Origin: Blasia pusilla
Taxonomy: Eukaryota
Length of the DNA: 64,000 bases
Reading direction: 5' to 3'
Assembly: GCA_050084515.1 (NCBI GenBank)
Contig: CM114271.1
Span: 6,014,001 to 6,078,000, forward strand
The notes beneath the pieces were generated by a model. That model was not told the DNA's origin and ran no database searches. It worked only from the letters and a program-made list of their open reading frames with translations. A program made the translations under genes and the position numbers. Positions 4,990 to 53,828 of this stretch are shown here, one piece after another. The number at the start of each line of letters is the position of its first letter. Position 1 is the first letter of the stretch.

Positions 4990-5464
4990 TATCTCAAGGG
5001 ATAGATATACATAGGTCCTTTTTGGATACTTAAGAAAGGCCCATCGGTCCCTATCTATTCCAAAGGAGAAAAAACAAAAAAAATTGTTACTGTCTCTCCA
5101 TCTTTGTCCTTAGCATTTCATGGGGGAATGAGATTTTATTTTATTTTTAAAAAAAAAGAAAAGAGGAGGAGTAGGAGGAGGAGAAATGTGTATCCGCACA
5201 ACGCCTCCTTGAGAATGGATATACCGGAGGAGAGTGAGCTTTGGAGCTTATTTTCTCTTTGTTAAACCTCTTGGCATAAGATGGTGAAGTTCTGGTCCTC
5301 CTTGCCTTGTGACTAACCAAAGCCTCTCATAAAGAGAGTGGCTATGGTTTTGACAAGAGGGAGATAGATAGAGATAGAGAAGCATGAGAGCTTTGATGCT
5401 ACTTGATTTATTGTATTTTTTTTACAACAATATATGTTATGTAACGACGTACATCTGCATGATG
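4990..5464 (+). repeat. Decayed solo A+B repeat unit of the split-repeat Gypsy lineage
   Basis: 5230-5370 aligns with element-3 repeat A (gagcttattttctctttgttaaacctcttggca...ccttgccttgtga...aagcctctcat). 5424-5464 resembles the conserved B terminus (acaacaatatatgttatgtaacgacgtacatctgcatgatg). Boundaries approximate; no TSD seen. Confidence 0.6.
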
Positions 5465-13500: not shown

Positions 13501-14450
13501 GTAAGCATGTTAGATCTCTTCGCAGGGATAAGCACTAGATTGGCTCTAGTATTGCAAGCGGATATACAGGTGCATTAGTACCTTTATGTTGAGAGAGTTG
13601 AGACCACGCGACTACTATCATTACGTCACGTGGCGAGATTGGTCCAGAGGTATCCTGAGTTGTTGCCGATATATGCAGTACAGGGATATTAGCATACACT
13701 ACCCGCAGATATCTCTTTGGTAGGGGCGCAGGACTTGGATAGAGTTGGCACCATTCATTTGGTGATTGCAGGATGGCCATGTAAGGGTCATTCATCAGCT
13801 GGCCAAGGGTTTGAATTCCACGATCCAAGGCCAGGGATATTTTGGGAGATACTGCAAGTAGTGCGACACTTGCAATAGAGTCAGACATGTTCTCTGACGT
13901 ATATTTTGGAGAACGAGCCATTTTGGGAGATACTTGTGCACATGTGATGACGTGTATGCATCAGGTCAAGTCATGGTTAGGACCTGTTGTGTTGTTAGAT
14001 GCAGTGAGAGTTGGATCACACGCCCATCGTCCATAGCTGAGATGGACAAACCTGATACCATCAGAGGTACAAAGTTGAGCATACAATTGAGTTCAGAGAG
14101 CACCACATCTCACAGTGGATACTATTTTGGGCTCAAGGCATCGATCTCATGTGGTGACGCAGGATGATAGACCACCATTGGCGATAGCCAATGGTGGGGG
14201 AGTTGAGGGCAGCCTTACCTACGTTGGTGAGCTTCCCACATCCCATGCCTTTCGTCAGGGAGGGCCAGGCATGATTTGGGATAAGGTGACCCAAGCATTG
14301 GAGAAGCCTACAGTAGATGAACGCAAGCGCGCCATGGGGTTTGCTATGGGTACTATGGCTGTGCCAGGTATGACTGAGGCATCACGGAGACAAGTGTTAG
14401 GGCAAGCGATGGACCTCAACTGTCTCACATGGATAGTCAGCCTAGGTACG
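13501..14450 (+). pseudogene. DNMT3-like C5 cytosine DNA methyltransferase domain inside element 1 pol
   Basis: Motif I LDLFAGIST (13510), II YLYVE, IV LVIAGWPCKGHS (~13760), VI YILEN (~13900), VIII AHRP*LRWTN (~14025), IX ERKRAMGF, X RRQVLGQAMDL. Confidence 0.88.
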
Positions 14451-14717: not shown

Positions 14718-17660
14718 GTGGTTGCGTCCTCTCCAAGTGAGGTCACGATAGAGACTTGGGAGCCTGTAATAGGTCTCAAGTTGATAGGAGGAGAGCGACG
14801 GCAAGTTCATAGGTTTCTGAGAGGGCATGTCAATTATTTTGCCTTCGGTATGAGAGACTTGGGTATGTTGAAGGGTCCCGAGATACGAATTGAGTTGGCT
14901 AGCCATACGCCGATCTTTCGTCGATCCTACAGGTATTCTGATATGGAGTGAGCTTTGATTCAGAGCAGGAGTCAGGACTTGTTTGAGGCAGGACTTGTGG
15001 AGTTATCACATGGGGAGTATGCATCTGCCATAGTCATGCCGGCGAAAAAGGATATGTATGGCAATTGGACAGATTGGCGGATGTGTGGAGATTACCGTCC
15101 TATCAACCGAGATGCAAGGTCAGATTGGTACGCCATGCCTACTCTTGAGGAGATCTTTGATGTGGTAGGGCATGCAAAGATCTTCAGTACTTTAGATCTT
15201 TGTGCTGGCTATCATCGGCTTCCTATCAGTTTGGAGGACAAGGAGAAGATAGCATTCTGGGAGACAACTCGGTTCGGGAGAGATTGTTTGTATCATTGGC
15301 GGTTCTTACCATTTGGGTTGAAGAACACGCCTGCGGAGTTTCAGAAAGTGATGGACAGGATTATGGCTAGCTTGGATTTTGTATGGTATTACATAGATGA
15401 TATTCTTATCTTCAGTTCCACGGTTGAGGAGCATGAGCGACACATGGAGGAGATGTTTCAGCGATTGCAGTTACATGGACTAAAGTTACATCCAAGCAAG
15501 TGTAGATTCTTTCAGGAGTAGATTGAGTACTTGGGACACACGATATACCTGAGTGGGTTAGGTATTCAGCAGACAAAGATGGCAACTATTGCGCAGATTC
15601 CACGCCCTATAGATGTGAGTCGAGTCCGAGTGTTTCTAGGACTCGCAAAATTCTATCGATTGTATGTCAAGGGTTTTAGTACAATCGTGAAGTCTTTGAC
15701 CTTGCTCACAAGACTTGACCAAGTTTGCTTGTGGGAAGATGATCAAGAGCAAGCATTTCACAAGCTCAAGGACAGATTGACGTCCTCACCCATTTTACAG
15801 AGACCGACTAAGGGTCGCCCATTCTAGTTACGTACGGATTGGAGCATGTTGGGTTTAGGAGCCATGCTTACTAAGAGAGATGACGAGGAGAGGGAGTTCC
15901 TTGTGGCTTATGCGAGCCGATTGAACAACATTGCAGAGGCAAAGTACAGCTTCTAGGAGGGAGAGTGATTGGCTGTAGTGTGGGCCGTGCCACATTTCAG
16001 GTGCTATTTATTCATCAACCCTTTCACACTTATCACTAATCATCAGCCGTTGAGGTAGTTGATGGAGTCCGACAAGCTTACGGGAAAGCTTGCCAAGTGG
16101 GCTCTATTACTACCGGAGTATGAGTTCGAGGTGGTTCACAGACCAGATATGGTGAACCAAGATGCGGATGGGTTGAGTTGTAACCCATGTCTGAATTAGA
16201 GAGACGACACAGAACCTCGATGGCACGGAGAGAGTGATGAGGAGATGGTGCCCGGCTGGCATGCATCTGCCTATCTTTGTTGGTTGACTATGGCAGGTCA
16301 ACTGCAGGTGGTGACTCCAATGGTGGGATCGGATGATGAGTTTGGATCCGGAGGTTAGTGAGGAGGTGAGAGGTGGTCATGATATCCATGACGACCTGGA
16401 GGTGGTGGAGTTCTTGCGTACTGGCGTCATAGTGAGCACACTAAGTGCTAGGGAGCAAAATCAGATCCTACATAGAGCCAAGAGGTTCAAGTGGGAGGGA
16501 ACTCACATTTTGCGGGTATGGGGAGATGGTAGGATACGAGTGTTACCTCATCCTTCCCAACGAGCACGTGTAGTGTGACATGCCCATGTGGAGTTGGGGC
16601 GTTTTGGATTAAAGCTAACTTACAACTTACTCTAGGTTTAGTATTGGTGGCACGACATGCATATTGGGATACAGCAATGTGTGGCCACATGTATGGTATG
16701 TGACAGAGTGCGAGCATCCTTCAATGCTCCCACTCCGCAGTGACATCCTTTGTCGATTATGTGTTTATGTTATCGGTGGATTTTAGACTTCGCGGGACCT
16801 TTGCCATTGACGGGGTGTCATCATAGGTACGTGTTGGTCATGGTGGAGCATTTCTCCAAGTGGATAGAGCTAGTGGCACTACCAGACAAGGCGATTGAGG
16901 GAACAGCTTATGCGTTTCTAGATCGTGTGCTTAGTCACTTTGGTGCACCAACGGAGGTGTTGACTCAAGGTTATCGAGTTCAGGGGAGAGTTTCAGGCCT
17001 TGAGTGATGAGGCGCTGATAGATCACCGCACCACATCCTAAGATCATCCTTAGGTGGATGGTTGGCGGAGAGAGCAGTATAGACGGTGATGAGAGGATTG
17101 CGCTAGTATGGCTTGCAACAGGGACAGTTGAGGGAGTGGGACCTACAGTTGCCATGGTTGGCTATGGGTTATCGATTTAGTCGGCATGCATCTTTGGCGT
17201 CATTTTCACGGTCCTTTTTGCTCTTTGGGAGAGAGCAAGATTTATCTGCAGCTATTTGACATGACATGGCAGAGGTGTTAGATCTGGATGATCCATATGT
17301 GTGGGTATAAGCGTGTTCTCACAGGGCGGAGATTTTTTGTAGAGTTATGCCCATGGCCTTTGAGAACTTAGCTATTGCCCAGCATAGGGATATATTGAGG
17401 TACGCGACCATTTGTGGAGGAGGTTATCATCCAGGGATTATGAGGTTTCATCCTGAAGATTACTTGTATTTACAACAATCGGTACCCACGGCGCTAGATG
17501 TCACTGCAGGGCACACGATCCTACGTGTGCGCGAGGTATTTTCGACCGGAGTCCTCATGTTGGAGGGACGGGATGGTATGGTTTGGAAGGATCATGTGCG
17601 CAATTGTGCGCCATGTCATCTTTCGAACGTGGACGGGATAGTGGATCCGAGCTTGGCTAG
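14718..17660 (+). pseudogene. Element 1 RT-RNaseH-integrase (decayed)
   Basis: RMCGDYRPIN, LPFGLKN, YIDD, TDWS, KLAKWALLL, DFAGP, MVEHFSKW. C-terminus deleted at ~17660. Confidence 0.92.
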
Positions 17661-18892
17661 GTTCGTTGTATCAAGAACGTCATTTCTGCCAACTTTCCTG
17701 TTGAGGTCTTTCACACTCGGGTGACTTGTTGAGCAGGTCACCCGCCCCTGGTAACTTTTGTGCGCAGGTTACCATGAGGATAGCTATTTTTAGCTATTTT
17801 GGGAAGAGCGTTTTGGCTCTTCCCAACCTTATATAAGAGAGGAAGATGGCTTTCCCAAGCCATCTTTCTCATGTTGGGCTGGCCATTCTTACTCGTATGT
17901 GTGAGTTAGGACTAAGTGCTAGTGTTTGGATTCCTTGATAGCACAGGGTGGACGAGGCTTGATATGCCGATATAGATTGAGGAGTGGAGTTTTAGGCCGG
18001 GCTTCCATTTTTACTACTCTTTATTTTTTGTTTTGTGATCGTCATGTATATGTATAAGTTGATTTTTGTACATGTGTGGATCTATCCGTGTGTGGGAAAG
18101 ATCTGTGTTGTGTGGTATGGATATGCATAGCGATGTATGTTGTGTAGCGATGTGTATGCATACAAAAAATGCCATTTTGATGTAAGTAGTCATAAAACTC
18201 TGTTGAAAGGTACTCTCCTCCTCCATCACGACGCAATTTGAGAATGTGTTCTCCAATATGCTTCTCTATCATAATTCTAAATGTTTGAAATATTGAGAAT
18301 ACTTCTAACTTGGCTTTCAGAAAGTATATCCATATATACCTAGAGAAGTGATCAATGAATGAAACAAAGTAATGGCAACCACTAAGGCTATGTTGTGATG
18401 TTGCCCATACATCATTGTGAATCAACTCCAATATCTTGGATGCTCTTCTACCTTATTTTGGAAATGGAAATCTAGCTTGTTTTCCAAATTTGCAAGAAGG
18501 ACATACCTCTAACATAATAGGACTCGCTAATTTAGGAAGTCTTATTCCAAGATTAGAGGATAAAAGACTCTATAATCTTTCAAGATTCATATGCCCAATT
18601 CTCTTGTGCCACACATTTAGATTTGTGAGTTGTTGGCCAGTTTGATCATACATTGTTGTTTGAATCTCTTGCATAAAAACATATAATTTGAACCTTCTGC
18701 CAGATTTATTTCCTTTTCTTATCATAGTCTCATCATCCATTATTTCAATGAAACAACAATCTGTATTAAACTTCACTTGATAACCTTGTTCTACTATTTG
18801 TCTTACATAGATCAAATTTCTTGCAATGGTAGGAACATAAAGAACATTTCCAAGAGCACAAAGACCATCTAATGCTATTGGAACTTTACCGG

Positions 18893-31955: not shown

Positions 31956-34900
31956 AATGTCGAATTTTATAACGTTAAAGAATATTGCATATAGAAAAAC
32001 TTGAAGAGAAATACCTATTATTTTATTAATATAACTCTTCGGGATATACAACATTTCTAGTATAAACACCATCTTTGTTTGGTGGACTCTCATTGTCAAT
32101 CATCATATGGATTGACTTGGTAGAACCTACTCTAGATGAGGCAACATATAATTTTCTGTGAGAAAATACAGGATTTGGCAAGTGAATACCAACTCTATCT
32201 AACGTTTGACCTTGAGACTTATTAATTGTCATTGCAAAAACAAGACGAATATGAAATTGAAATCTTTGTAAATCAAAAGGTAATCCTGAATCAGATGCAA
32301 TCAACGGAATGCGTGGAATAAACACTCGAGCTCCAATACTTTTTCCCGTCATAATTACAGCATCTATAACATGTCGACCAAATCCAATAATCACCAAGCG
32401 AGTTCCGTTTGCTTGTCCCTTTGCTCCATTCATATTTCGTAATAGCATAATTGGAGCTCCCATTTTCAACGTTAGGCAATGTGGTGGAAGTCCTGATGGC
32501 AAACAAGTATTCAAGAATTATGTTAGGTATATAAACCTCACCCCGTCATCAATCACTGAATCATCACTTTAAAAATTGTGCACCAGAGAAGAGAAACAAT
32601 CATTAGCATCAAAACAATAATTTCTTATAGTACAAATTAATTATGTCTTCATTTCATATAAATTGAAGATATTCATGAAATATTCAAATTACCTCTCTTG
32701 GAAATTGCGACATAATTTCGGCATTGATCAAATCCACAGTAGTATTCTTTGTTGTAAGAATAGATGTACCCCTCAAGAAGTCAATATCACTCCACTTATC
32801 AATATCACGTTCATAGACAATTTCAATCAAATCATTAAGTCTGTGGCTCTTAATAATCATCGCATCAGGAATTCTTATAAAATCATCTCCAAACTCACAA
32901 TGCAATGGTATCCGATCCTCGCCAACCTTTAGTAACTAGTTTGCAAATCCATCTTGCTCATGTCGTGCTTCTCCTAAATAAAATTGACAAAAAAAAAGGA
33001 ATGAGTACATTTTCATAAAAAATCCATAAGATAGCAAAAGCAACAACAAAAGGTTCAATCTTGTTACCTTGCAAACAATTCACTCTCATGTTGGTAGTGA
33101 GTTTCATTATTCTCCCATGAGTCCAAATAAGAGATCTCTTAAGGGTTGCACGCACGCTGTGGTTGGTCGATCACCATGACGTACTACAAGAAAAAATTGT
33201 CGGAAGTCACCACCAAAAATAAATATATTGCCCCCAAAAGGCAGATCTCGTAGTTCAAGATCCACCAAACCCATGATATCTTGGAAGGTACGATTAACAG
33301 CCTCAAAAGCATAACGATGCGTCATAGGAGCTTCATCCCATACGATCATCTTTGCATTTTGCATACGACGTGCAATATCACTATTTACAGATAAGCTAGA
33401 AAATACACAAGAAATAAAAAAGTAAGAAATATTTATACGTAATATATAAGAATAATAAAAACATAATGGAAACCTGATTTTAGAACAATATTAGAGTAAT
33501 AAAAAAAATCTTAGACATAAACTTATTTGCAAGTAGACGATTCATGTATCTAAATAGGAATCTTAAATCGAGAATGAACAATACGGCCTCCATCGAGTAA
33601 CAAAGCAACAATACCAGAAGATGCAACTGCAGGAGTTATATAACCCTTGCTTCGTACGCTAACAAGAAGAAAATTGTATAGAAAGGTTTTTCTGTTCCAC
33701 CACGACCATCAATGAAGAATAACTTTGCCTAAAAAGATCCACATTAGCCACAATATATAGATATTAAAGAATTACAACTTAGAAATAAATCTTAAAATAG
33801 CTTTACATATATAAAATGCACTTACAGAAGATAGCGCATCATTTAACACATCCTCTATGAAAAGATGGACAACATCCCATATAGCTCGTTGTCCATCATT
33901 CAATGAAATCTCCCCTCGTTGAACAGGATCAGCAAGCATTTCACAATCATAGCACAACTCTTATTCCTCTAAGCGCGAGATCGATATAATCCGAGTAACA
34001 ACGTTAGGTTGAGGCATGTTGGGGAAATCTGCCATACTTTTACCATAATCTTGAAGATGGTAATGGATCTCTAATAATGCAACATTAATAGTATGTGGAT
34101 CCAAAGGAAGATTAGAAATTCCAATTCTTTGCATCAAACTATAAAAATATCTGAAACATCTGAAAGAAAAAACATAAAAATCAATACAAATTTGTAATAA
34201 AAAATAGAAAATTCAAGAATGCATAGAAGGCATGCATATTACCTCGCGCCTTTGATGTAAGAGATCTTCAGTTAGAGGAACTAAGAAGCGTTCCCATACC
34301 ATGCTAGGTATAGAGGGCGTGTTGTACAGAAGAATAATGGCAAAGAGCAAACGCAATGAATAACCAGTACGAATTTGTATTGCCTCTTCAAAGCATGAAA
34401 AAACCTCTCTGTTGTCTTCTAATAATCCCATTTGAATAGCCGTTTCCTTAAAAGTAGAATAAACAACACCATCAATCGTTCTTAAATCTTGATAATATTG
34501 AGCTTTTCTCACATGATGAAGAAGTAATCGTAGCCAATGACGCTCCTATTCACCTATATAAATTAACAATCAATTAAAATAATTAATGTAAACCCAAGAA
34601 AGAAGAGAATAATATTATATTAAGTTTAACATTAATTTTGTGAAAAAAAAATCTAGAGGAAAGTTCACGTGGGTTAGTCATATACAAACGTCTGATAGGA
34701 TGTCCACATCCTTTTCTTCCACATCGAACCCACGTCTTCTTTGTCGTGCGAATCCACATCGTCATACAACATACATCGCTGACATACCATACGCACATAC
34801 ATACATAACATAGACGAGAGTATCCACAAACGCAAGTGTACCACCACTGAAATCCGTGAAAGACCTACTGTCATAAAACACGTTTACAATCACATACAAT

Positions 34901-35499
34901 CGAGCCAAACCCACTCCACGATGGGAGAATCTAGGTCGAAGCTTGCGGGAAAACACCATAGCCAAGAGCTCTACTCACTACCAAGGCTAACTCCCAACGC
35001 AACAGGCTCAACTCAAAGAACTTACTGTTCTTTGAGGGCAAGCCACCTTATATCCTCCAACCTAAGAGCGGGCCCTACTGGGAAAGTCACCCCCAAGTGA
35101 GTAACCCCCAACCCTATGTATGGAACCGCATCTCTACCAAGCCACTACGGTCCTACATAAGGAATGGCCTCTACCAGCACACCATACTCTACGACATAAT
35201 CCGTATGGTCATGACAAGTGTCATGCGAATCCACATCGTCATACAACATACATCGCTGACATACCATACGCACATACATACATAACATAGACGAGAGTAT
35301 CCACAAACGCAAGGGTACCACAACTCGCCCTCCTAACTGGCGGTTAGGTCCCTCTAACTCCCAGGTAGCCCTATACATCTACTACATGCTATACACCTTC
35401 TTGGGTGCCCAAATCAGAAGGCCGGGTGCTAGGTTGCCCCATCGTTAGTCGTACATCTGTAATCCATATCATGCAAAGATCAAGTCATCTACCTCTCCT

Positions 35500-35640
35500 A
35501 AGTACATCGAGGACAAACCCACCTTCCAAAGAGGAACAACATCCAAACGTGAGTCAAACACATAATGTGCCAACCCCTAGAACACCGATCACACACCAAC
35601 ATACGGGCTGCGTTACCAACAGACCCACACAACATGCACC
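35500..35640 (-). pseudogene. PHD finger at the integrase C-terminus, element 2
   Basis: CMLC-x8-LVCDRCSRGWHIMCL-x9-GRWVCPRC fits the C4HC3 PHD with the conserved W before the last CxxC. Confidence 0.9.
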
Positions 35641-38570
35641 TCAAGCTAGCACGTATCATGGCTAAGCTTGGGTCAACAGTACCATCCACATTTGGAAGAT
35701 GACATGGCGCACAATTACGCACATGGTCCTTCCAAACAACTCCATCACGACCCTCCAACATGAGAACTCCATAAGCTAACACCTCACGCACTTTCGTAAA
35801 ATAGTGCGCCTGCCGTCACATCCAACGTTGTCGGGCAATCTGCTGCAAATAGACATAGTCCCCACATGGAACCTACGAATCGATGGTCGATAACCTCCAC
35901 CCGAATGGTTGCATGCCGCAACGTATCCCTGTGTTGAGCAATGGCAAGATTCTCAAAGGCATTTGTTGGCATAACTCTCGAAAGAGCTCCGCCGGCGAGA
36001 ACACACCCTCATCCACATCTCGGGGTCATCAAGGTTCACCACCTCACTAGACTCCCAACAATTGTTGGCAAGTCGGATCTCGGCCGTATAACTTGAGAGA
36101 ATAAGGTGAGAAGGAAGCCAAGGATGCTTGGCGATCGAACCCTATACCCCATGGCTAACCATGGCAACTGAATATCCGGTCTCCAAGATGCCCTTCAGAG
36201 GCCATACTTGCGCAATGCCCTCTTCACCGCCCTGAACCACATGCTCAGCCAAACCATCCGCCTCTGGATGATCTCGAGCGTGGTCCGATGATCAATCAAC
36301 GCCTTGTCACACAAGACGAAACTCACCCGAAACTCAGACCTGGTCGGGTCAAGACGCCAATTTGGTGCACAAAAATGACTAAGCACTCTATCCAGAAACG
36401 CATACGCCGTTCCCTCACTTGCCTTGTCCGGTAATGCCACCAACTCAATCCACTTGGAGAAGTGCTCCACCATCACCAACACATATCGATGATGTCGTAC
36501 AGTCAACGGTAACGGTCCCGCAAAGTCCACACTCCAACGGTAACCTAACCCCATAATAGGCAAGGGGTGTAATTGTGGTGTAGGGGCATTAAATGATGCC
36601 CTCACCCGGTCACAAACCATACAACGTGACACCAACTGCTGCACCTGAGTATGCATGCCACGCCACCAATACTGGCCAAGGAGTAAGCTATACGTACGCT
36701 TTACCCCAAAATGTCCCAACTCCTCATGGGCATGTCGCACAATGCGCTCTCTCTGAGCCAAATGTGGCACTACTCGTACTCTACCATCCTCCCATACGCG
36801 GAGAATATGTGTTCCCTCCAATCGATACCTCTTAGCACGTTGAAGAACACGGTCTCACTCCTTGGCACTCACTATGCCTGGCACCCTACTGGTCCGTAGG
36901 AACTCCAACACCAACGCATCATCATGAATATCACGCTGATCCGTACCACCATCTCCAACCTTAGGATCTCAAGGTGGCCATCTACCCCTCGACTAGAGTA
37001 AGATATCATGTGGTCCTCCATACTAGAGTCCACCCCTAACCAACATAAAAAGGCGGATGCATGCCAACCTGGCACCATCTCCTCATCAACCTCGCCATGC
37101 CATCTAGCCCCAGTTGTATCCTCTTGGCTAGTACATGGGTTCCTACTCAACCCATCAGCATCAAGGTTGGCAACTCCAGGTCTATGTACCACCCGGAAGT
37201 CATACTCTGTAAGATAAGAGCCCATCGTGCAAGCTTCCTGTAAGCTTGTCCGACTCTATCAACCACTTGAGCGGCTGGTGATCGTACCAAGGGTAAAGCG
37301 TGTGCCAAACAAGTAACACCTAAAGTGTGCCACACCCCCACACTCTTGCCAAGCACTCTCCCTCATATGAACTATAGCGCGACTCCATTTGCATTATTCG
37401 AACAACTTGCATAGGCCACCACAAACTCCATGTGCTCATCATCATGTTGTGTCAACACCGCTCCAAGTCCCAACCTACTCCAATCAGTGTGTAATTGAAA
37501 TGGGCGCCCTCTGATAGGTCTCCTCAAGATAGGCGCCGCCACCAACTGGGCCTTAAGCTCCACAAAAGCTCTCTCCTGATCATCTCCCGAGTGCCACTCT
37601 TGATCTGATTTCAGCAATTGGTTCAAAGGCTTTGCCATAGCACTATATCCCTTCACATACCTCCGATAGAAGTTCGCCAATCCCATAAATGCTCGAACTC
37701 TACTCACATCTATCGGACGCGGAATAAGTGCAATAGCCTCCACCTTTGCTTGCTGAACTCCCAAACCACCTGGATAGATCACATGACCCAAGTACTCAAC
37801 ATCCTCATGGAAGAACTTACACTTTCCTGGATGCAAACGTAGACCATGAGCTTTCAACCGCTCAAACACCATCTGCAAATGTATCTGATGCTCCTCCACC
37901 GTGTTACTGAACACCAAGATATCATCAATGTAACACCGAACAAAATCCAACCCTGCTAGGATCCTGTCCATCACTCTTTGAAACTCGGCATGTGCATCTT
38001 TCCACCCAAAGGGTAAGAATTTCCACTGGTACAAACAATCCTTACCATGAGAGTTGACACCCCAAAATGTTGTCTTGGCCTTGTCACTCTCCCGAATCGG
38101 CAATTGATGGTATCCTGCCCGAAGATCCAAAAATCGCAAATCTTTGCTGTCCCACCACATCAAAGATCTCTCGGTGTAGGCATGGCATACCTATCGGCCT
38201 TGGTTTGCCGATTGATAGACGGTAATCTCCACACATCCGCATATCCGTGTAGTTGCCATGCATATCCTTTTTAGCAGCATGACGCGCCGATGCATACTCT
38301 CCATGCGACAACTCCACTAATCCAGCCTCCAAAAGGTCCAACGTCCTACTCGAATCAAGTCCTCTCCATATCACTATATCGATAGGGACGACGGAAGATT
38401 GGCGTATCACTAGCCAAATCAATCCGTATACCGGGTCCAACTAGAGAACCCAACTCCTTCATGCTAAAGGCAAAACAACTCCTATAAGCACGTAGGAACT
38501 GTGTCAAGCGTCGTTTCTCACCTCTCGTAAGCTTGGGCCCAAGTAATGGCTCCCAAGTCTCCTCCTTTGG
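35640..38570 (-). pseudogene. Element 2 RT-RNaseH-integrase
   Basis: LDLRAGYHQ, LPFG, YIDD, HTDWS, H-EELG-H...CMVC zinc domain, DFAGP. Confidence 0.93.
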
Positions 38571-38849
38571 CACACTAGAGGGAGAGGCGATGCCATTGGT
38601 CGCTCATAACCCCCTCACAAGATGGTACACCCTTAGCTACACCATCATCTCGAGCAAATAACTCTCCACCAAAGATGAGCAACCAACTCCACATGCCCAG
38701 CCATTACATCCCATCTACTCCAAGGATGCAAAATACTACTCTCCTCGCCCCCATCCGATGCCTCTACCGTCCCGATAGCCATCGAGCTCATTACAAGGGG
38801 TGGAAGACCCACAGACATAGTCCGAAGTCGACGCTGCTCGGCCATACCA

Positions 38850-39795
38850 AGACTCAAAATCCAAGTCAAACAATTCAGGTCCATGGCCTGACCCAACACA
38901 TGACGTCGTGAAGCCTCAGAAATAGAAGCAACCGCTGTCACACCTGTAGCAAATCCCATCGCACGATCTCTCTCATCAGCGTTAGGCTCCACCAACTGTC
39001 GCACATGAGAATCCCATACAAGCCCTGGACCACCTTCCCTGTAGGCATGTGACGAGGGAAAACTCACAAATGTGGGTAGTGCCATCCTAGGCTGGCCCAC
39101 ACGGTTCACCACTGCCATGGGTGACCGATCAATAACCCTCCCCACTTGGGAAGTCGCCGAGTATCCAAGATACTATCCACTGTAAGGCGAGGATCCCACT
39201 GCACTGCATCATATGCTCGACGTAGAACCTCCCTAGGCAACAAGTTTGTCCACCACAAGCGTGGACGATGTGCACGCGAGCCAACTCGCGCTGCATCCAA
39301 CAACACCGCTGGTCCAATCCAAGAGCGCACCTCATGAACACTCGCCATCATTCGGGTCCGAGTGTCACCCAACAATGGAACATTCTCCAGAATGTAAGCT
39401 AGAGCATGTGCCTGATGAACCTGAAGATGTCGTAACACCCGTAACATCTCCCAAAACAATCGAGACCTAGGGTCATGTAATCCCTCACCACGACCAGCAC
39501 GTGTATGACCCTGACATGGCCATCCAGCAATCACCAAATCCACAGGACCTATTCTCTCAAGGTCCTGCGCCCCCAACAATGCAATGTGTGATGGTAAAGC
39601 ACGCTGGTACCCACGAATAGCGATGGCGCCAACAACTCAGATATCTCCGCATCAATCGACCAATATGTCGGGATGAGACTCTGGGCCGTCTCATCTTGCT
39701 CCACATACGTATCTCTCCGACAGAATACCGGCTGCAACATCATGACCAAACCAAAGTGCTAATCCCACCAAAGAGATCTAACACACAAATGCCCT
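38850..39795 (-). pseudogene. DNMT3-like C5 cytosine methyltransferase domain inside element 2 pol
   Basis: GICVLDLFGGIS (I), YVEQD (II), DLVIAGWPCQGHT (IV, catalytic PC intact), YILENV (VI), SRAHRPRLWWTNL (VIII), ERDRAMGF (IX), RRHVLGQAMDL (X). Confidence 0.93.
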
Positions 39796-42650: not shown

Positions 42651-45131
42651 CAACGCCGATGCCGCACCACCACCAAATTACCAAGTGACGTCGATGTCGC
42701 TATACTATTCTAGCTCTACTAGCTATGGGTGTAGGCAACCTAACTTGTCATCACCACAAGAAGTCTCCCACAATCTATTCGTCATCCCTCCAGCCTCACT
42801 ACCGGTAGCACACAAGAGTAACACTACTCTGGAAATCAGCGTCAACCCTAACAATGGGCGCGCAAGCAAGAAGCACGATGGAGGGGATCCAAACACAGGA
42901 AATCCAACGACAACCCTCCAATCGCAAATGGAAATCAAGGTTACACAATCCACCAAACGTGGTGCCCTCTGAATCCACAAAACCCACCACACAATTCTAA
43001 CGCAATAGCTGCTCCGCCGCGGGTCGATGACGTGCTAGTCGAACGCGCAGCACCTGAAAATATCACCTGCATGGAGAGGCTACACCGTACTATGCCCTAG
43101 AGTTACATCAACCAAAAACCTAAGATGCATAAAGCGCCTAACATATCTCCGAACAGCACCAAATGAGCTACCACAGTCTTCACACTGGCAGTTAAGAACT
43201 CGGCAGTTAAGCGTCCTCCAGGCAGAATAGCCCAAAGATGGGTGACCAGTTATGCAAAACTCAAATCCCGAAGTCTGAAAAAATTGCCTCACGCCCAAGC
43301 AAGCAAGCTTGCTTGCTTGCTCCTTGCTCCTTACTCCGCCTCTCACGCCCACTCGCCCCGAGCTACCACGAGTTGCCTCGAAGCCTCAAAACGCCGAGAA
43401 ATGCTCGAAACATGCCCCTATCGCCCCGTTGGCCATGCTTCGCTATGGAGAGAGGTCCAACCAGGGTGCCCCCAATGGGATAGGCGTCTCCAAAAATGAA
43501 CGAGTCACCAACCAACCAGCCCCTCCGATCCGCTGTCCACCATAGCCAGACCTTGAGCTAGTCCGCAAAATTTCGATCAGAAATTACTTCACAAATACGT
43601 GACCAAAATCAAATCTGTTTAGATCAGAATTCAATTGACCACCATAGCTATCTCCCCACAAAAACTCAGCTACAACCGAGCTCCGTACTCCGAGCTAAAA
43701 ATCAGACAAACTTGCTGTCCATACACCTCCGCAGTACCAAATCCGGCCGCTTCCGCCAAGTTTCATGCACGCAGAAATCCGCAACGCTCCACACACTCGA
43801 GCAAATAAATTCACAGGAGATCACAATACGAGTAGCAACAGGAACCTCTCACCTGATCTGGATGAACTTCAACACAGCTTCCGCACTCCAAGCTCTCCAC
43901 ATCAGAAAACCGTCGAACACGAACCAGAATCTTCAATCCTTGATAACTTCCAACTCCCTTGACGAAATCCGGCGATCTAAAGCGCGTTGGAAAGCTCTCA
44001 GCAAGGCGCTTCTTTCCCATCTGACTGCGCACCAGATTCACACCTCCAACATAGGCCACAAGCCACGAACATCCACGGCTGAGTACACAATCAGCCCTAA
44101 CCAGATCCTACTGATCTACAATCGAAGCTACCATCGATCTACTCCAGTTCTTTGAGTGAAATCCGTGAAAGACCTACTGTCATAAAACACATTTACAATC
44201 ACATACAATCGAGCAAAACCCACTCCACGATGGGAGAATCTAGGTCGAAGCTTGCAGGAAAACACCATAGCCAAGAGCTCTACTCACTACCAAGGCTAAC
44301 TCCCAACGCAATAGGCTCAACTCAAAGAACTGACTGTTCTTTGAGGGCAAGCCACCTTATATCCTCCAACCTAAGAGCGGGCCCTACTGGGAAAGTCACC
44401 CCCAAGTGAGTAACCCCCAACCCTATGTATGGAACCGCATCTCTACCAAGCCACTACGGTCCTACATAAGGAATGGCCTCTACCAACACACCATACTCTA
44501 CGACATAATCCGTATGGTCATGGCATCTTATTCCAAGAGTAATGGGAAGGAAAATCCAAATAAAGGAATTGTCAAACCGTAGGATCAGATATATTTGTAG
44601 CAAAGCATTGAGTGAGAGTCATCTCCTTACTCCGTTCTAGAATATTATCCAAAGAGTTACGATCATGAAAATATACCATCTGACTATCAGGGAGATGTAC
44701 AATCAATCGTACAATACTTGGTTGCTCACCATGTAAAATAAACTTGAAGATTCTCCAACAAGCTTTTGAAGCAGAAACATACTTGAAAAGACAAAAAAGT
44801 AAATATAGTTAGAGTCCAACCTTTCAATATTCTAATCTAATTTCAAAATAACATAAAAAAATAGAAAGTCATGTACCTCGCATCAAGATATAAGGATGTC
44901 TCATCAATAATATCTTTTGTAATTGTGCTTCTTGCTAATGTATACAATATGGCATATGATTCCTTATATACAAACTTATAGAAGTACTTCACAGCCAATA
45001 TGCGATTCATAATCTCCAAATTGATATGACAATCAAATAAGGTACATAACATCGGATTATGTAAAACCACCCAATGATTGTCAAAGTCATGATTCGACTT
45101 ATGAATACACCTACCATTAACACGTCTACAT

Positions 45132-48100
45132 TGTTACCTCTTTTATGATAGATCGGTGAGATCTAGTAGAGTACCTTGGCGGAATAGTAGAGGACAGACT
45201 CAAGAGGTTGAGGATGACCTACAGAGACCCCAGGAAACCTGAGAGAACACGTTCTCCCTTTGATTCGTCTCATTTGGAGCCATAACAATTTATTATTTTA
45301 GGTAAGTACCATGTTGAATATATTATCAATTTTCTATTTTTGGTTAGTGGCCCTTGACCTCCTACATCAAATCAAGAATGTAGGAGGTCAAGGGCCAAAG
45401 AGGTGACTTGGGAGCATAGGTTACCATGGAGAGAGTTTGAGAGAGGGGAGGGGTATACCTCAAAGAGAGAGAGCTTGAGAGCTTATTTTCTCTTTGTTGA
45501 ACCTCTTGGCACAAGGCAGAGAAGTTATGGTCCCTTGCCTTGTGAATGTAACCCAAGCCTCTCATTAGGAGAGTGGGTTTAGTTTGACATTGAGAGGGAC
45601 ATGTGAGAGTGCACACATTTGAGAGTTATAGTATTGAGAGAGATTGGATCGTGATTTACAAAGAGAGAATGAGATGAGTGAGAGAGCTTTATGGAGGAGC
45701 TCGCTGGTTTTGCAGGTTGGGAATCATATTCCCCGTTTAGAGGTTCATGAGAGTGCTCATCGGAGCCGAAGCCACTCATTTTTTATGTTTCCTTTGCCAA
45801 TTTTTTGTGTGAAAGAGTGGCGCGCGGAAGCGCTACCCAATTTTTATAGGGATTGAGTATGGGAGGAAATTTCCCCATGTTGATGCTCTCAAGAGTACCA
45901 TGTAGCTTGTTAATTTGTGTTTTCACAAGTTTTATACTTTTTTTGGGAAAAATCAGTGCGAAAGCGCTGCCAAATTTTGTGTCAACAAAATTTGGCAGAA
46001 AGAGACCTTGAGCTTTACAACAATCCCTGTCAGTTTTTACTAGAATGTCCAATTCAAAATATTTTTTGACGCCGTCGTAGATCGTGAAGCTGTACACGCT
46101 ACACAATAGACAATGCATGGTTTTGAGTTGCAGGCAAAAGTTATGGTCAATCTTGCAATTTTGCCATTGCTATGGGATTTTTAGGGTAAAATTGTTCAAA
46201 CCCTAAACTGACGGCCGCCGCCGCGGCGGCCGTCAACGGTCCACTGTCCACCGTTGGCCACCGCCACCGCCTAGCGCTGCTCAGAGCCACGTTTGGCCAT
46301 TGTCCATCCTTGGTTGCCATTGCCGCCATTACGAAGTGGAGGGTCTTCCACGACGACCGTTGATTCTGACTTACATCGCCACCAAATACTTTGTTTTGGC
46401 CGCTACCGTCATCGCAATTTCGTCATCAATCAGTGATTGCAGGGGACCTCTGGTTATGGTGTTCGAGTTTTTATTTCATTCTGCTATGTTGTGATTGGTA
46501 GCCGCTCGAGGAAGATCGAGTATCGTGTCGTGACTCCCGTAGCCATAACGCGCCGCCATTTTCCGCGACGTGCCGCTCGTGGCCGCATCGCACCGTCTCG
46601 ATCACGGAGCCGCTCCTTCACTAAGGACCAGACCATGTGTATTTTTTATTGAGGAGATTATGCCGTGGAGTGCCGCATCCCATTATCGAATGTCGTGTCA
46701 TTATGTAGCCGTTCCGCACCGCGAGTGCCGTACTATACCGCTGGATCCGCACGGCATATTGAGGAGGTTTAAGCAACGTGAGTACAAAAAGAGTACGACT
46801 TGCTGATTGGAGGAGTTGTCTTCACGACCAAGTTGGGATTGAGATTTGCAGTTTCTGAGGAGCGACATCAACATTATTATCAGGTTACCCATTGTGGTCT
46901 CTTATCGTGCATGTGTGAGGGAATTCCGGGTATTTGCAAGTTATTTGGGATATTGGGAAATTATTTGGGATATTGGATTTTATGCTTATGCTGAAAGTAT
47001 TGATGACGTATGGGTTGAGGGGACATAGACCTGTGTGGAATGTCTAGAGTTGAGGATCAGTTGATTTGCCGCACAACACATATCTCGGTGAGAGAATGTA
47101 GCTTGAGTGCCACATATTAGATTGAGTGATTGCGTGATTATTCACGAGGTTGAGAGTGATCGTGTGAGGGAGGCACAAGGATCATCACGACGTCCTTTCG
47201 GGACTATGAGAGGCAAGGTTGTGGACCGGAGAGTAGCTCTAGAGGATTTATGCAGAGTGGCGCGAGGTTTCGAGGATCTCCATGTGCGGGACCACCTCGA
47301 CCTCCTTCTATGTCATCTTCAGATGAGGAGGAGGGCGTAGAGGAGTTCAATATTGCTATGCCACTCACATTGAATAGTCCTACTGCTTGGGCGTACAAGA
47401 TGGATGACCGGGGTAGAGGACCGTGTAGGTTCTCAAGTGCAGTAGGCGTGATAGAGTTGCACGACTTCATCGCGGAGTTTAGGAGTTGGTGCGACTCACA
47501 GCGGGCTAGGAAGTCTAGAGAGTTGAACTCGTTTACAGCATGGAATGGTATATTCCAGCATTTAGATGGGGCATCCATGGAAGATTACCATGAGTTCTCC
47601 CACAAATATGCCCAAGAGATTGAGGCATGGCGACTCTACTATGATCCACACTATATGTCATGGACGGAGCCGTTCCAAGATGAGGAGGAGGATTCAGGAG
47701 AGCCTACTTCCTCGTCCACCAGTGATGTTTTAAGAGGGGTATCTCGCACTAGAGCAGTTGCACCATTCTGTCGGGTTTGCTCCAGGTTCAACCCCCTGGT
47801 TGAGTTCTTCGCTGAGTTGAGGGCGAGCTACCAAGGGTACGTAGAGAGAAGTTGCGGAGCATCCACGACTTCCAAGGGCGCCCAAGTGAGAGTTTGCGTG
47901 AGGCTTACACTCGCTTGCACTGGTTGATCAATGTCATTCAGGGGATAATAGAGGCTCAGGCTATCCACTCATAGTACGCGATGCTGAACTCGACCCTGCG
48001 GATACGTGTACGGGAGGGGGCACTTCTTATGAACACCTCACCTATGTTGAGAGATGTTTTTAGGACCGTTGAGAACATTGAGCGCATCATGGCGGAGGAA

Positions 48101-51100: not shown

Positions 51101-53828
51101 TGGAGTCCGACAAGCTTGTAGGGAAGCTTGCGAGGTGGGCTCTTTTGTTGCAGGAGTATGACTTCCAAATGGTGCATAGACCTGGGATGCTCAACCAAGA
51201 TGCATATGGTTTCAGCCGTAATCCATACCCGAGTAAGCTAGATGCGACTAGAGCTTTTGCCATGGTGAGAGTGATCAAGAGTTGGTGCCAGGATGGCATA
51301 CGTCAGCCTATTTGGGCTGGTTGGCTATGGAGAGCGAGATTTTTGAGACTTCAATGGCGAGGTCTGATGGAGAGTCGTTAGATCCAAAGGCCGATGAGGA
51401 AACGACATGTGGCCGAGATATTCATGACGATGGAGTGGTCTTGGAGTACCCGCGTACTGGTAGCGTCATGAGCATAGTGGGTGCTAGAGAGCAGGATCGG
51501 ATCCTATAGCGAGCCAGACGGTTCCAATGGGAGGGGGCATATGTATTGCAAGCGTGGGAGGATGGTAGAGTGTGTGTAGTGCCTCATCCTTTGCTGAGAG
51601 CACGTTTGGTGTGTCGTGCCCACAAGGAGTTGGGTCATTTTGGAGTAAAGCGGACGTACAGCTTGCTTGAGTTTCAGTAATGGTGGTGAGGCATGCAGAC
51701 TGACGTTCAGCAGTTTGTTGCCAGATGCATGGTGTGTGATTGAGTCTGAGCATCATTCAATGCTCTGACTCCACATGTGCATCCACTTCCGATCATGGAT
51801 TTAGGTTATAGATGGATTTTGGATTTTGCAGGACCTTTCCCTTTGATAGAGCGCCATAGTCGTTATGTGTTGATGATAGTCCAGCACTTCTCGAAGTGGA
51901 TGGAGTTGGTTGTATTGCCTGAAAAAGTGAGTGAGGGAGTAGCAAATGCCTTCTTTGATTGAGTGTTGAGTCATTGTGGCGTACCAGCTGAGGTGTTGAC
52001 AAACCAAGATATACAATTTCGCGGGGAATTTCAGACCTTGTGTGATCAGGCATTGATCGACCATCGCACCACTTTGCGAGATCATCTTGAGGAGGATGGA
52101 CTAGCAAAGAGGGTTGTGCAGACGATGAAGAGAGGATTACGTAAGTATGGCTTGCAGAAAGGTCACTTAGGAGATTGGGACCTTTAGTTGCTGTGGTTAG
52201 CGATGGGATACAAATTCAACAGGCATGCATCCTTAGCTTCTTTCTCACCGTACTTGCTCCTTTATGGCCGTGAGCCTGATTTTCCTGTGGCCATTTGTCA
52301 AGATGTTAGTGAGGTGTTGAACCTTGATGATCTTGATGTATGGATGAGAGCATCTTCTAAGAGGGTTGACTTGTTCCAAAGAGTGAGGCCCATGGCATTT
52401 GAGAACTTGGCTATTGTGTACTATTTGGATACATTGAAGTATGCGACTATTCGGGGGATGGTTATCGACCTACTATCCGAAGATTTCATCAGGGAGACTA
52501 TGTCTACTTGTAGCAGATGGCACCCATAATGTTGGATGTGACTGCAAGGCGCACCATCTTGAGAGTACGGTAAGGGTTTTCCATCGGGTGTTCTCTTATT
52601 GGAGGGACGTGATGGTATGGTTTGGAAGGACCATGTGCATAACTATGGCCGTGTCACCTTCCAAACATTGACGATATAGTTGATTCGAGATTAGTAGTAG
52701 TTCTTGCAGGCTTGCGATGTATGTTGTGTGGTTATGCCCGTGGTATAGCCACTATAGTAGTCTTTGATGGATATTCGAGAGGATGGCATATGGCATGCTT
52801 GACACCACCTCTCACTAGGGTTCCTCAGGGACAATGGATGTGTCCCAAATATACATAGAGTAGGTAGTTCTACATTCTGACTTGTGTCTGTGACATGGAT
52901 GACAAGAAGGTGACTAACGATGGGGACACATGAGCACCCGACCTTCTTGCTCTTAGCGTCTGAGAGATGTATGTCATGCATGGTAGGTAGGGATAGATGG
53001 TTATCTAGAGTTAGAGGGACCTAACCACCAACTAGGGGGGGATTGGAGATATTTTGGTACTTCTTGTCTCCTTGTTTGGATGCCATGAGTTAGCGTGGGA
53101 TCGTGCGTGTTAGTGTGTGTGTTCGGTGATAACGATGTATGTTGTGTAACGATATATATACGCACGACAGTTGTCACGTCTTTTAGGATAGATCGTGAGA
53201 TCTAGTAGAGCGCCTTTGCGAGTAGTGGAGGACAGACTTAAGAGGTTGAGGATGACCTACTGAGGCCCCGAAAACCTGAGAGAACAAGTTTCCCCTTTGT
53301 TTCCGCTCATTTGGAACCATATTGAGGAACTTACTATTTTAGGTAAGTACCATTTTGAGTATATGGTCTTTTTTTTTTTTTTTGGTAAGTGGCCCTTGAT
53401 CTCCTACATCAGATCAAGAACGTAGGAGGTCAAGGGCCAAGGAGGTGACTTGGGAGCATAGATTACCATGAAGAGAGTTTGGGAGAGGGGAGGGGTATAC
53501 CTCAAGGAGAGAAAGCTTGAGAGCTCATTCTCTCTTTATTGAACCTCTTGGCACGAGACGGCGGAGCTATGGTCCCTTGCCTTGTGAGTGCAACCCAAGC
53601 CTCTCATTAGGAGAGTGAGTTTGGTTTGACATTGAGAGAGACATGTGAGAATGCACACATTTGAGAACTATGGTGTTGAAAGAGATTGGGTTGTGATTTA
53701 ATTGGAAATATTTTGGTTCTTCTTATGTCCTTGTTTGGATGCTATGAGTTAGCATGGGATTGTACGTGTTGGTGTGTGTGTTCGGTGACAACGATGTATG
53801 TTGTGTAGCGATGTGTATGTGCACAAAA
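45132..53828 (+). mobile_element. Element 3: same lineage, split repeats A1 45132-45660, B1 53042-53169, A2 53172-53700, B2 53701-53828; chimeric interior lacking PR and DNMT
   Basis: TSD acat/atat. Gag ~47310-48680, foreign RT-RH 48680-50180, own RT-RH-IN 50180-52700, decayed PHD 52718-52856, G-run PPT 53034-53041. Confidence 0.92.
48680..50180 (+). pseudogene. RT-RNaseH fragment from a different Ty3/Gypsy lineage, inside element 3
   Basis: PMVIFTIPHMPW, LRFIQDMQP, LPKGATDS, FVDD, DTSPIAIGW, HIAGKENSVADMLSR; clearly unlike the adjacent YIDD RT. Confidence 0.85.

Follow-up and report, generated by a model that had tools for sequence, protein, structure and literature searches.

Putative self-priming in split-repeat, methyltransferase-carrying Gypsy elements of Blasia pusilla

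Elements of the window and their coding content

The window, the whole 64-kb stretch of DNA that was analysed, contains three related retrotransposons: E1 and E3 on the plus strand and E2 on the minus strand (table 1). All three are dead copies with numerous stops and frameshifts, and the mechanism discussed below is for that reason an account of how their families once worked. They are not plain LTR elements. The repeats are split in the order A1...B1-A2-B2 in E2 and E3; in E1, a deletion took the end of pol, the polypurine tract (PPT) and B1, and shortened A2 by about 107 nt. The start of A1 in E1, placed near 10405 in a preliminary description of this DNA, lies at 10299. The same A-coding-B-A-B layout is found in the relatives L001, L004, L038 and L062, among others. 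Perfect 4-bp target-site duplications (TSDs) at seven insertions flank the start of A1 and the end of B2. The PPT precedes B1, the B/A boundary is a palindrome flanked by CA and TG, and the A2/B2 joint is variable and may keep primer-binding-site (PBS) bases. Two other repeat pairs of the window, 7674-7983/22157-22453 and 3919-4326/32126-32533, were rejected as candidates, their appearance being unlike that of this lineage's repeats.

Table 1. Positions of the features of E1, E2 and E3, and of one solo repeat unit, in the window.
Feature	Position	Strand	Remarks
E1 5' repeat A1	10299..10770	+	begins tgtcac
E1 upstream arm	10580..10593	+	14-bp hairpin with self-primer region, -21.5 kcal/mol
E1 putative self-primer	10602..10615	+	pairs with 10771..10784
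E1 putative PBS	10771..10784	+	pairs with 10602..10615
E1 DNA methyltransferase fragment	13693..13875	+	PF00145, 1.4e-6
E1 reverse transcriptase piece	14952..15518	+	Pfam scan of ORF pieces
E1 A2, 5'-truncated	17655..18028	+	repeat comparison
E1 B2-like tail	18029..18165	+	terminates gcataca; last 38 nt 92% to E3 B2 end
E2 5' repeat A1	44157..44525	-	369 nt, TG..CA, 98% identity to A2
E2 TATA box atataa	44357..44362	-	29 nt 5' of first paired base
E2 upstream arm ctcaaagaac	44336..44345	-	direct copy of PBS core; 10-bp hairpin with self-primer
E2 putative self-primer	44320..44332	-	predicted RNA nt 1-13
E2 putative PBS	44145..44157	-	pairs with 44320-44332
E2 C5 DNA methyltransferase fragment	39109..39636	-	PF00145, 3e-10
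E2 reverse transcriptase/RNase H ORF piece	37375..38190	-	Pfam scan of ORF pieces
E2 integrase	36198..36854	-	H2C2 zinc finger and rve core
E2 PHD finger, C-terminal	35501..35815	-	Pfam scan of ORF pieces
E2 PPT aggagggcgag	35324..35334	-	directly 5' of B1
E2 repeat B1	35219..35323	-	GT-rich, terminates catgaca
E2 B1/A2 boundary palindrome	35210..35225	-	catgaca-ct-tgtcatg
E2 3' repeat A2	34848..35216	-	repeat comparison
E2 repeat B2	34742..34847	-	97% to B1; true right end of element
E2 TSD aaga	34738..34741	-	partner 44526-44529
E3 5' repeat A1	45132..45658	+	repeat comparison
E3 upstream arm caaagagaga	45461..45470	+	hairpin with self-primer
E3 putative self-primer	45484..45497	+	pairs with post-A1 bases
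E3 putative PBS	45658..45671	+	pairs with self-primer segment
E3 PHD finger	52643..52855	+	Pfam scan of ORF pieces
E3 PPT, agggggggg-type	53034..53041	+	directly 5' of B1
E3 repeat B1	53042..53169	+	ends in gaca of the cgaca type; then gt, then A2
E3 3' repeat A2	53172..53700	+	begins tgtcacg
E3 repeat B2	53701..53825	+	repeat comparison
Decayed solo A~B unit, E3 family	5190..5460	+	same self-primer word present

The lineage encodes Gag, a C5 DNA methyltransferase, reverse transcriptase (RT), RNase H, a DDE integrase and a PHD finger. A Pol order of RT, RNase H and DDE integrase with an H2C2 finger, together with a zinc knuckle in Gag, places it in Ty3/gypsy. The near-intact polyprotein of the relative L021 contains zf-CCHC, DNA_methylase, RVT_1, RNase H, Integrase_H2C2 and rve domains. 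The PF00145 methyltransferase is found by Pfam in E1, E2, L021 and L048, and was not detected in the scanned ORF pieces of E3. Pfam, run on every ORF piece, returned no chromodomain; E2 and E3 have a PHD finger there instead, and the finger is also present in relatives. No Phage_integrase match, the sign of a tyrosine recombinase, was obtained with Pfam in the window elements or L021, where an rve integrase is present. Named relatives of the lineage come from Marchantia, Sphagnum, Calypogeia, Closterium and Cymbomonas.

Complementarity between the repeat and the bases that follow it

Each of the three elements has, at the end of A1 or just past it, a stretch reverse complementary to a segment of the same repeat that lies 29-31 nt downstream of a TATA box. 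In E2, 44157 to 44145 (actcaaagaactg) is the perfect reverse complement of 44332 to 44320 (cagttctttgagt) over 13 nt. In E1, 10771-10784 (acatgagaaagatg) pairs with 10602-10615 (catctttctcatgt) over 14 nt, and in E3, 45658-45670 pairs with 45485-45497 over 13 nt, one of them a G-U, the longest exact run being 9. The preliminary description had reported these pairings; its sequences lie where it had put them, those of E1 and E2 are reverse complements over their full 14 and 13 nt, and its observation that the three sequences differ while every pair stays complementary holds for all three. It had also pointed to a C at the G-U position in the 3' copy of E3. This copy (53526-53539) does have the C, and additionally an A for G two bases from its end. 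Counted from the initial T of the TATA, which begins at 10571 in E1, the first paired base follows after 31 nt (E1), 29 nt (E2) and 30-31 nt (E3). On the PBS side, pairing begins at the final base of the repeat or at the next one. The further claim that the pairing spans the terminal CA of A1 has to be narrowed: in E1 and E3 repeat homology stops before this CA, and since the 3' copies read otherwise there, the two bases are part of the PBS rather than of the repeat. Upstream of the self-primer, each element has an extra PBS-like copy that can form a hairpin of 10-15 bp with it.

For a chance control, each repeat was shuffled 5000 times with its dinucleotides preserved, and the longest run against a fixed 23-nt probe was scored. 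The shuffles of E1 gave runs of at most 12 (observed, 14) and those of E2 at most 11 (observed, 13), so that the observed value was reached in none of 5000 in either case. An exact run of 9 was attained in 94 of the 5000 E3 shuffles; taken alone, the E3 complementarity is therefore weak.

Relatives were retrieved with the E2 RT as 80 loci from metagenome contigs. Pairing was surveyed at 24 A-ends among them that have no B directly after. An unbroken paired run of 10-20, G-U counted, is present at 9 of the 24, L001 and L006 having 17 Watson-Crick pairs; four A-ends have a run of 7-8, and six are without the start motif. In the remaining five the run is no longer than 2; one of them is not a PBS, and L038 and L040 nonetheless pair at 17-18 of 20 positions.

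The pairs covary. Against the family words gttctttgagt and actcaaagaac, L023 has gttcttCgaAt and aTtcGaagaac, and E2 and L001 differ by cagttc/gaactg versus tagttc/gaacta. Across 11 rows of the E2 family 85.8% of cells are paired, compared with 33-50% under sliding of the partner. Both sides are altered in four pairs, a number reached in 10 of 500 shuffles, and the primer:PBS helix is part of the consensus fold (RNAalifold). A fourth family, L062, whose RT is 52% identical, has a pair of its own, aactagttcat with atgaactagtt (11 nt), the core of which is itself a palindrome and which lacks the upstream hairpin. The covariation that the preliminary description proposed to look for across families is thus seen as compensatory changes within the E2 family and as four family-specific pairs.

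A probable self-priming mechanism and its rivals

The data show that the two segments are complementary, where they lie, and that they covary both inside a family and from one family to another; the transcription start, the RNase H cut and the priming event itself are inferred. Minus-strand DNA synthesis would be primed by the element's own RNA, as in Tf1. (i) The RNA would begin about 30 nt past the TATA, within repeat A. (ii) Its first 13-17 nt would fold back onto the complementary PBS adjoining A1. (iii) The RNase H of the element would cleave behind this duplex. (iv) The released 3' end would then be extended through U5 and R. A retained RNA primer would be copied into plus-strand DNA, and the PBS would be rewritten in every cycle; such rewriting would account for the perfect pairing in young copies. 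In the rearranged relative L013, A2 starts immediately past the primer and is followed by nine PBS bases. This arrangement was considered as a footprint of strong-stop DNA, but the locus is a four-junction mosaic with inverted pieces and is at most suggestive.

Self-priming of the Tf1 type is the best explanation of the pairing in E1-E3 and a probable one, with a putative RNA start predicted from the TATA spacing. It is preferred to tRNA priming because four related families (E1, E2, E3 and L062) have four primer/PBS pairs, because changes within the E2 family are compensatory, because pairing begins at the repeat boundary and because the TATA spacing is constant at 29-31 nt. That a tRNA or tRNA fragment primes further downstream, the 5'-end pairing being no more than a structural stem that serves, for instance, cyclisation, packaging or the control of translation, is unlikely. 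TGG words are indeed available after A1: the first stands at +11 in E2, at +24 in E1 and at about +40 in E3, which has none within 30 nt, and relatives of the E2 family have tgggagtagtt at about +17. However, these words vary among families and lie away from the repeat boundary, the usual PBS site. There, the first 10 nt are free of TGG in all three elements, in agreement with the preliminary description, which had found no TGG tRNA PBS after A1. The boundary pairing covaries with the repeat, which is not expected of a tRNA-templated PBS, and the E2-family word appears to misfit a T-stem/acceptor 3' end as judged from general tRNA anatomy. ARAGORN found no tRNA genes in the 64-kb window or in any of the 80 relative loci.

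The hairpins raise a different explanation, in which one arm of the promoter palindrome has been duplicated at the DNA level to give the post-A1 word, for instance as a protein-binding site or recombination scar, with no role in priming. The upstream arms of E1, E2 and E3 are near-identical to the PBS core, and some of the complementarity may thus be a by-product of the palindrome. By inspection, the post-A1 region of L001 agrees at 22 of 24 positions with the palindrome's full reverse complement. As a full account this is very improbable, for the PBS pairing outreaches the hairpin by 4 nt in E1, on both sides in E2 and to 17 nt in L001, L062 has its pair without any upstream hairpin, and the word always occupies the position required of a PBS, no other primer site being apparent. 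Chance complementarity is hardly credible. The shuffles leave room for it in E3 and refute it for E1 and E2, and the pairing holds the same position relative to the TATA and the repeat end in four families and recurs in independent copies.

Known systems and a tentative model for the split repeats

To our knowledge, self-priming is proven in fission-yeast elements only. The Tf1 primer is 11 nt long and is retained, a length similar to the 13-17 nt found here. In Tf1 and Tj1, the PBS, which directly adjoins the 5' LTR, complements the 5' bases of the mRNA and there is no tRNA PBS (PMC4600332). The likeness to Tf1/Tf2 of Schizosaccharomyces pombe and Tj1 of S. japonicus lies in a PBS that adjoins the 5' repeat and is complementary to the element's own repeat, and cleavage and priming are predictions in the present elements. 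In contrast to Tf1, the lineage has a PHD finger in place of the chromodomain, a C5 DNA methyltransferase in Pol, split repeats rather than two plain LTRs, and an extra PBS-like arm 5' of the self-primer.

Among plant elements, self-priming has been predicted for Tcn1-clade elements of mosses and clubmosses and for the Ty1/copia TAR lineage (Neumann 2019, PMC6317226). The preliminary description had mentioned proposals of this kind for Gypsy lineages of non-seed plants, and the Tcn1 prediction bears it out. As described there, these are also plant LTR retrotransposons with predicted self-primers in place of a tRNA PBS, and bryophytes are among their hosts. Tcn1 elements carry chromodomains, unlike the present lineage, and SM-Tcn1 is reported with a TSD of 5 bp (PMC2864245) as against 4 bp here. 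The main text of PMC6317226, as distinct from the element lists of its Additional files 1 and 5, where overlap is possible, mentions no methyltransferase, PHD, Marchantia, Sphagnum or Klebsormidium. The signature described here would add a third and structurally odd lineage to the two plant lineages in which self-priming has so far been predicted from sequence.

A close description in structure is that of KnitGypsy-Dnmt3 from Klebsormidium nitens, which combines Gypsy domains with a Dnmt3-type C5 methyltransferase in Pol (de Mendoza 2018, PMC5890265) and whose A-coding-B-A-B repeats are arranged 'as in a DIRS retrotransposon' (Fig. 4 legend of that paper). Compared by description only, the two share a methyltransferase inside the polyprotein and the repeat order; the host there is a charophyte alga, whereas the hosts here are bryophyte-like. 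The account of KnitGypsy-Dnmt3 in PMC5890265 does not mention priming, the PPT, junction anatomy or target duplications, and literature searches on integrase-encoding elements with split direct repeats, on KnitGypsy and on Gypsy-DNMT3 turned up no account of how such elements prime or how their junctions are built. Self-priming is known in kind but rare, and what is new is its probable host lineage, which carries a methyltransferase and split repeats; in the sources consulted, DIRS-like repeats in such elements are noted only in the Klebsormidium figure legend. A self-carried cytosine methyltransferase and PHD reader bear on how transposons handle host silencing.

The order A1 - coding - B1 A2 B2, with joined termini at the B1/A2 junction, is likewise that of DIRS-order elements (Ngaro, PAT-like, SymbioDIRS-Dnmt3). 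These have a tyrosine recombinase and no TSD, in contrast to the rve DDE integrase with H2C2 finger and the 4-bp TSDs found here. At fourteen more distant loci (RT 46-62% identical) the DNA downstream of RT was long enough for a scan, and of these only L062 and L064 have B-A-B repeats. The layout of TSDs, PPT and palindrome suggests, as a hypothesis, integration at a site within U3. Tentatively, the functional LTR would be B+A, and integrase would cut the B/A palindrome inside U3 instead of the cDNA ends, giving a circularly permuted provirus. Integrase cutting of retroviral LTR-LTR junctions is known. The 16-bp palindrome catgaca-NN-tgtcatg may be cut after the end of U5 has joined the start of U3, as in a 2-LTR circle, and the provirus may then read A-PBS-coding-PPT-B-A~B. 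The mirror form, A~B-A-PBS...B, is predicted as often as the long form; B precedes A1 in none of eight independent A1 copies, and its absence makes the 2-LTR-circle version less probable. If true, the permutation would for the first time give DIRS-like split repeats in an element with a DDE integrase a mechanistic explanation, and would tie the split repeats to self-priming, a retained primer leaving PBS remnants at the A~B joint. The PPT before B, the palindromic B/A boundary, the TSDs and the variable A2/B2 joint together form a testable model of how split-repeat ends are rebuilt.

Liverwort- and moss-like genomes commonly contain the lineage, which is still transcribed, so that the mechanism can be tested in a bryophyte amenable to experiment. 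In stranded RNA-seq under the same species label, the E2 and E3 families are represented by sense transcripts. Over the 19.5 kb covered, depth in the E2 leader is just 12-28, and no pile-up of starts or ends is listed at 44332. Ends at 34862, 14 nt before the end of A2, number 5 of 22, which is not enough to identify a poly(A) site. Molecule ends also pile up at 35055 (23 of 78 and 19 of 81), where they may represent clipped reads of diverged copies.

Complementarity of the putative primer and its covariation

The three gypsy-type retrotransposons of the window, E1, E2 and E3, were delimited by self-comparison of the window and pairwise alignment of their repeats. All are decayed, the longest stop-free piece being 272 aa. 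In each, the putative primer-binding site (PBS) just after the 5' copy of repeat A (A1) is complementary to a segment within the repeat, the candidate self-primer. A preliminary description had proposed these pairs from sequence alone, and all three lie exactly where it placed them. On the PBS side the pairing opens either with the final base of the repeat or with the one after it. Within the repeat it starts 31 nt (E1), 29 nt (E2) or 30-31 nt (E3) downstream of the first T of a TATA-like box, in keeping with the distance of about 30 nt originally given. This is the usual TATA-to-start distance of RNA polymerase II. In line with the described lack of a TGG tRNA site, TGG is absent from the first 10 nt past the repeat end in E1, E2 and E3. 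The E3 pairing includes one G-U; as suggested, the 3' copy (A2) has the C there, which would give G-C, but A2 differs at another position. The repeat copies of E3 have each decayed differently.

Chance was assessed with 5000 dinucleotide shuffles per repeat, scored for the longest complementary run to a fixed post-repeat probe. Shuffled runs reached at most 12 for E1 (14 observed) and 11 for E2 (13 observed); the exact run of 9 in E3 was matched by 94/5000. The complementarity is real, and in E1 and E2 it lies far above chance. At window 5190-5460 stands a decayed solo A~B unit, a member of the E3 family, in which the self-primer word of E3 (attttctctttgt) is preserved along with a short tail resembling B.

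Features of the three elements (window coordinates, in reading direction)
Element	Feature	Coordinates	Strand	Remarks
E1	Repeats	10299-10770, 17655-18028	plus	86% identical
E1	Self-primer vs PBS	10602-10615 vs 10771-10784	plus	14 nt
E1	Upstream-arm hairpin	10580-10615		14 bp, -21.5 kcal/mol
E1	C5 DNA methyltransferase fragment	13693-13875	plus	
E1	Split-repeat region	18029-18165		B2-like only
E2	Repeats	44525-44157, 35216-34848	minus	98% identical
E2	Self-primer vs PBS	44332-44320 vs 44157-44145	minus	13 nt
E2	Upstream-arm hairpin	44320-44345		10 bp
E2	C5 DNA methyltransferase fragment	39109-39636	minus	
E2	PHD finger	35501-35815	minus	
E2	Split-repeat region	34742-35334		
E3	Repeats	45132-45658, 53172-53700	plus	87% identical
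E3	Self-primer vs PBS	45485-45497 vs 45658-45670	plus	13 nt incl. one G-U; exact run 9
E3	Upstream-arm hairpin	45461-45497		15 bp
E3	PHD finger	52643-52855	plus	
E3	Split-repeat region	53034-53825		

Related loci (L numbers) were fetched from metagenome contigs with a piece of the E2 reverse transcriptase (RT); of 184 candidate stretches, 161 passed confirmation, and from these the 80 best loci were taken. In the E2 family the post-TATA segment reads ...ctcaaagaac-ata-gttctttgagt and the bases following A1 are actcaaagaact(a/c)tgtt. Among 24 A-ends without B behind them, an uninterrupted paired run of 10-20 (G-U counted) is found in nine, with 17 Watson-Crick pairs each in L001 and L006, and a run of 7-8 in four. 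The start motif is lost in six. Runs of two or fewer occur in five, one of which is an A2 with an inserted joint and no PBS; in two others, L038 and L040, 17-18 of 20 positions nevertheless pair. Compensatory changes are seen in L023 (repeat gttcttCgaAt, post-A1 aTtcGaagaac) and between E2 (cagttc/gaactg) and L001 (tagttc/gaacta). When 11 E2-family R-U5-PBS stretches were aligned, the RNAalifold consensus fold contained the primer:PBS helix. Within a 20-pair helix that we specified, 85.8% of cells pair, versus 33-50% after shifting the partner by 1-3 columns, and both sides have changed at four pairs, a figure matched by 10/500 shuffles. The more distant L062 (RT 52% identical), a fourth family, has another pair, aactagttcat with atgaactagtt. 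The earlier claim that the sequences differ yet stay complementary thus extends to four families with four words, each fitting its own repeat, unlike the behaviour of a tRNA-templated PBS. A scan of the window and the 80 loci detected no tRNA gene with which these words could be compared. Behind the PBS of L001 (2018-2050) and E2-family relatives come 6-10 consecutive T and then ttgggagtagtt. This 12-nt word recurs in R about 25 nt past the self-primer, perhaps because the start of R was duplicated long ago.

Probable self-priming and the upstream arm

With complementarity, placement and covariation all directly observed, Tf1-type self-priming is probably the best reading; from it we infer a start site, a cut and a priming step. 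(i) The first 13-17 bases of the RNA would anneal to the PBS. (ii) RNase H would cut behind the primer:PBS duplex. (iii) The freed 3' end would prime minus-strand synthesis. Tf1 itself uses an 11-nt primer, which is retained. Its mode of priming is defined by the same order of annealing, cutting and extension of the RNA's own first bases (PMC4600332); it is proven for Tf1 and proposed for Tj1 and the Tf1/sushi group (PMC4600332; PMC6317226).

On a rival view, some of the complementarity arises as a by-product of a palindrome in the promoter. E1, E2 and E3 each carry, between TATA box and self-primer, an upstream arm that nearly copies the PBS core and folds into a hairpin with the self-primer, as happens in L001 (10 bp). 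This arm feeds the rival view, although PBS pairing outruns the hairpin: by 4 nt in E1, at either end in E2, and reaching 17 nt in L001. No analogous hairpin was found in L062. If transcription starts as self-priming proposes, the arm would be missing from the RNA 5' end and present in the 3' repeat copy, where it might, speculatively, tie up the primer word's second copy.

Stranded RNA-seq (three runs, same species label; window 34500-54000) shows the E2 and E3 families to be transcribed in sense, with reads crossing the B1|A2 junction. Read depth reaches about 100 in pol, against 12-28 in the E2 leader. The majority of reads match at 90-95% and so derive from other copies; at that leader depth, no pile-up of ends was seen at the proposed start. 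Molecule ends do accumulate at 35055, a short way upstream of the TATA box in the A2 of E2; a few fall at 34862, 14 nt short of where A2 ends.

Coding content and relation to known systems

Pfam searches of ORF pieces recovered the gypsy order of RT, RNase H and a DDE-type (rve) integrase with an H2C2 finger. In this lineage Gag/PR and RT are separated by a C5 DNA methyltransferase (DNMT) domain, present as fragments in E1 and E2; the integrase is followed by a PHD finger, seen C-terminally in E2 and E3. L021 (321-6809) holds a near-intact polyprotein of the lineage, interrupted by just two in-frame stops. Among named sequences, the E2 RT is closest to those of the liverwort Calypogeia (74%) and the alga Closterium (48%). 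The methyltransferase ORF has numerous relatives in Marchantia (57-63%) and others in Sphagnum (43%) and Cymbomonas (33%); many of these relatives share the set of DNMT, RT, RNase H, integrase and PHD.

On the chromodomain criterion, placement in the Tf1/sushi-Tcn1 clade is not supported, the same searches finding no chromodomain in E1-E3. The lineage departs from the DIRS order in its target-site duplications (TSDs) and in the tyrosine recombinase, which was not found in E1-E3 by these searches. Self-priming is predicted for 12% of surveyed plant elements, namely the copia TAR lineage and, in mosses and clubmosses, the Tcn1 clade (PMC6317226; PMC4600332). The Tcn1 prediction agrees with the earlier statement that such priming had been proposed for some non-seed-plant Gypsy lineages (PMC6317226). 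In SM-Tcn1, Novikova et al. saw evidence of neither priming mode (PMC2864245). Gypsy domains with Dnmt3 in Pol and DIRS-like repeats are described from Klebsormidium in one sentence and a figure legend, which say nothing on priming or junctions (PMC5890265), and a 2026 preprint names 'streptophytes (Gypsy-DNMT3)' in passing. Our literature search returned no account of self-priming in a DNMT/PHD split-repeat gypsy lineage, nor of its junction anatomy. Self-priming is known in kind; what the evidence supports as new is its probable occurrence in such a lineage, with an extra upstream arm. The hosts are bryophyte-like genomes, and the surrounding repeat anatomy is the more novel part.

Split-repeat layout and a hypothetical permutation model

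E1-E3 are not plain LTR elements. The 107 nt preceding A2 in E2 (B1) are repeated behind it (B2) at 97% identity, as are the 124 nt preceding A2 in E3. E1 keeps only the distal copy, owing to a deletion of the pol end, B1 and the A2 start. The A1...B1-A2-B2 layout recurs in L001, L004, L037-L040 (one locus), L023/L025, L044, L048 and L062/L064. Perfect 4-bp TSDs lie outside the A1 start and B2 end in E2 (aaga), L001 (aagg), L004 (tctc) and L038/L040 (cata); others are found in L013 (caca) and L062 (cctt), and imperfect ones in L041 (3/4 match) and L060 (2/4). The flanks of E1 and E3 showed none. Since the TSDs flank A1 and B2, the element ends are tgtcatg...catgaca, and B2 belongs to the element.

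Two forms coexist: seven long copies and about 12 independent short ones (A1...PPT-B|flank; L003, L005, L010, L014, L016, L020, L027, L033, L036, L041, L050, L060), with a single B at the flank and no A2-B2; L003 has the TSD tgtt. B precedes A1 in 0/8 A1 copies. A G-rich polypurine tract (PPT) stands directly 5' of B1, not of A2, in E1, E2, E3 and L062. The B1|A2 boundary reads catgaca-NN-tgtcatg in 11/11 rows, NN being mostly gc, which gives a 16-bp perfect palindrome. The A2|B2 joint varies: among eight independent loci it is ...ca + 3 nt + gtggtac in six, has a 20-nt filler in one, and in one (L013/L046) retains nine PBS bases and six others. In L062 and L064 a spacer of 14 nt occupies the joint.

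A PPT ahead of B and a PBS behind A lead one to expect LTRs of the form B-A from reverse transcription. Genomic copies might then be permuted cDNA: the U5 end would be joined to the U3 start in a 2-LTR-type joint, and integrase would open the molecule at the B|A palindrome inside U3. Such a joint would explain the variable A2|B2 junction and its PBS remnants, but the model also predicts a mirror form, which appears in 0/8 A1 copies and counts against it; we regard it as rather unlikely. Short forms may be primary integration products or products of B1/B2 recombination. Under the permutation model they would result when each of the two palindromes is cut, when a 1-LTR circle is used, or when B1 and B2 recombine later.

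Two diverged repeat pairs bracket E1 (7674-7983/22157-22453, 84%; 3919-4326/32126-32533, 74%) and are perhaps older nested elements or copies of genes; at their ends they do not resemble the E1-E3 lineage. A rearranged copy at L013:10855-11751 (the L046 locus) runs, after the RT region, through an inverted A piece, an inverted internal piece, a forward leader piece, R from the base after the self-primer, U5, nine PBS bases and B2, and looks like the product of several template switches.
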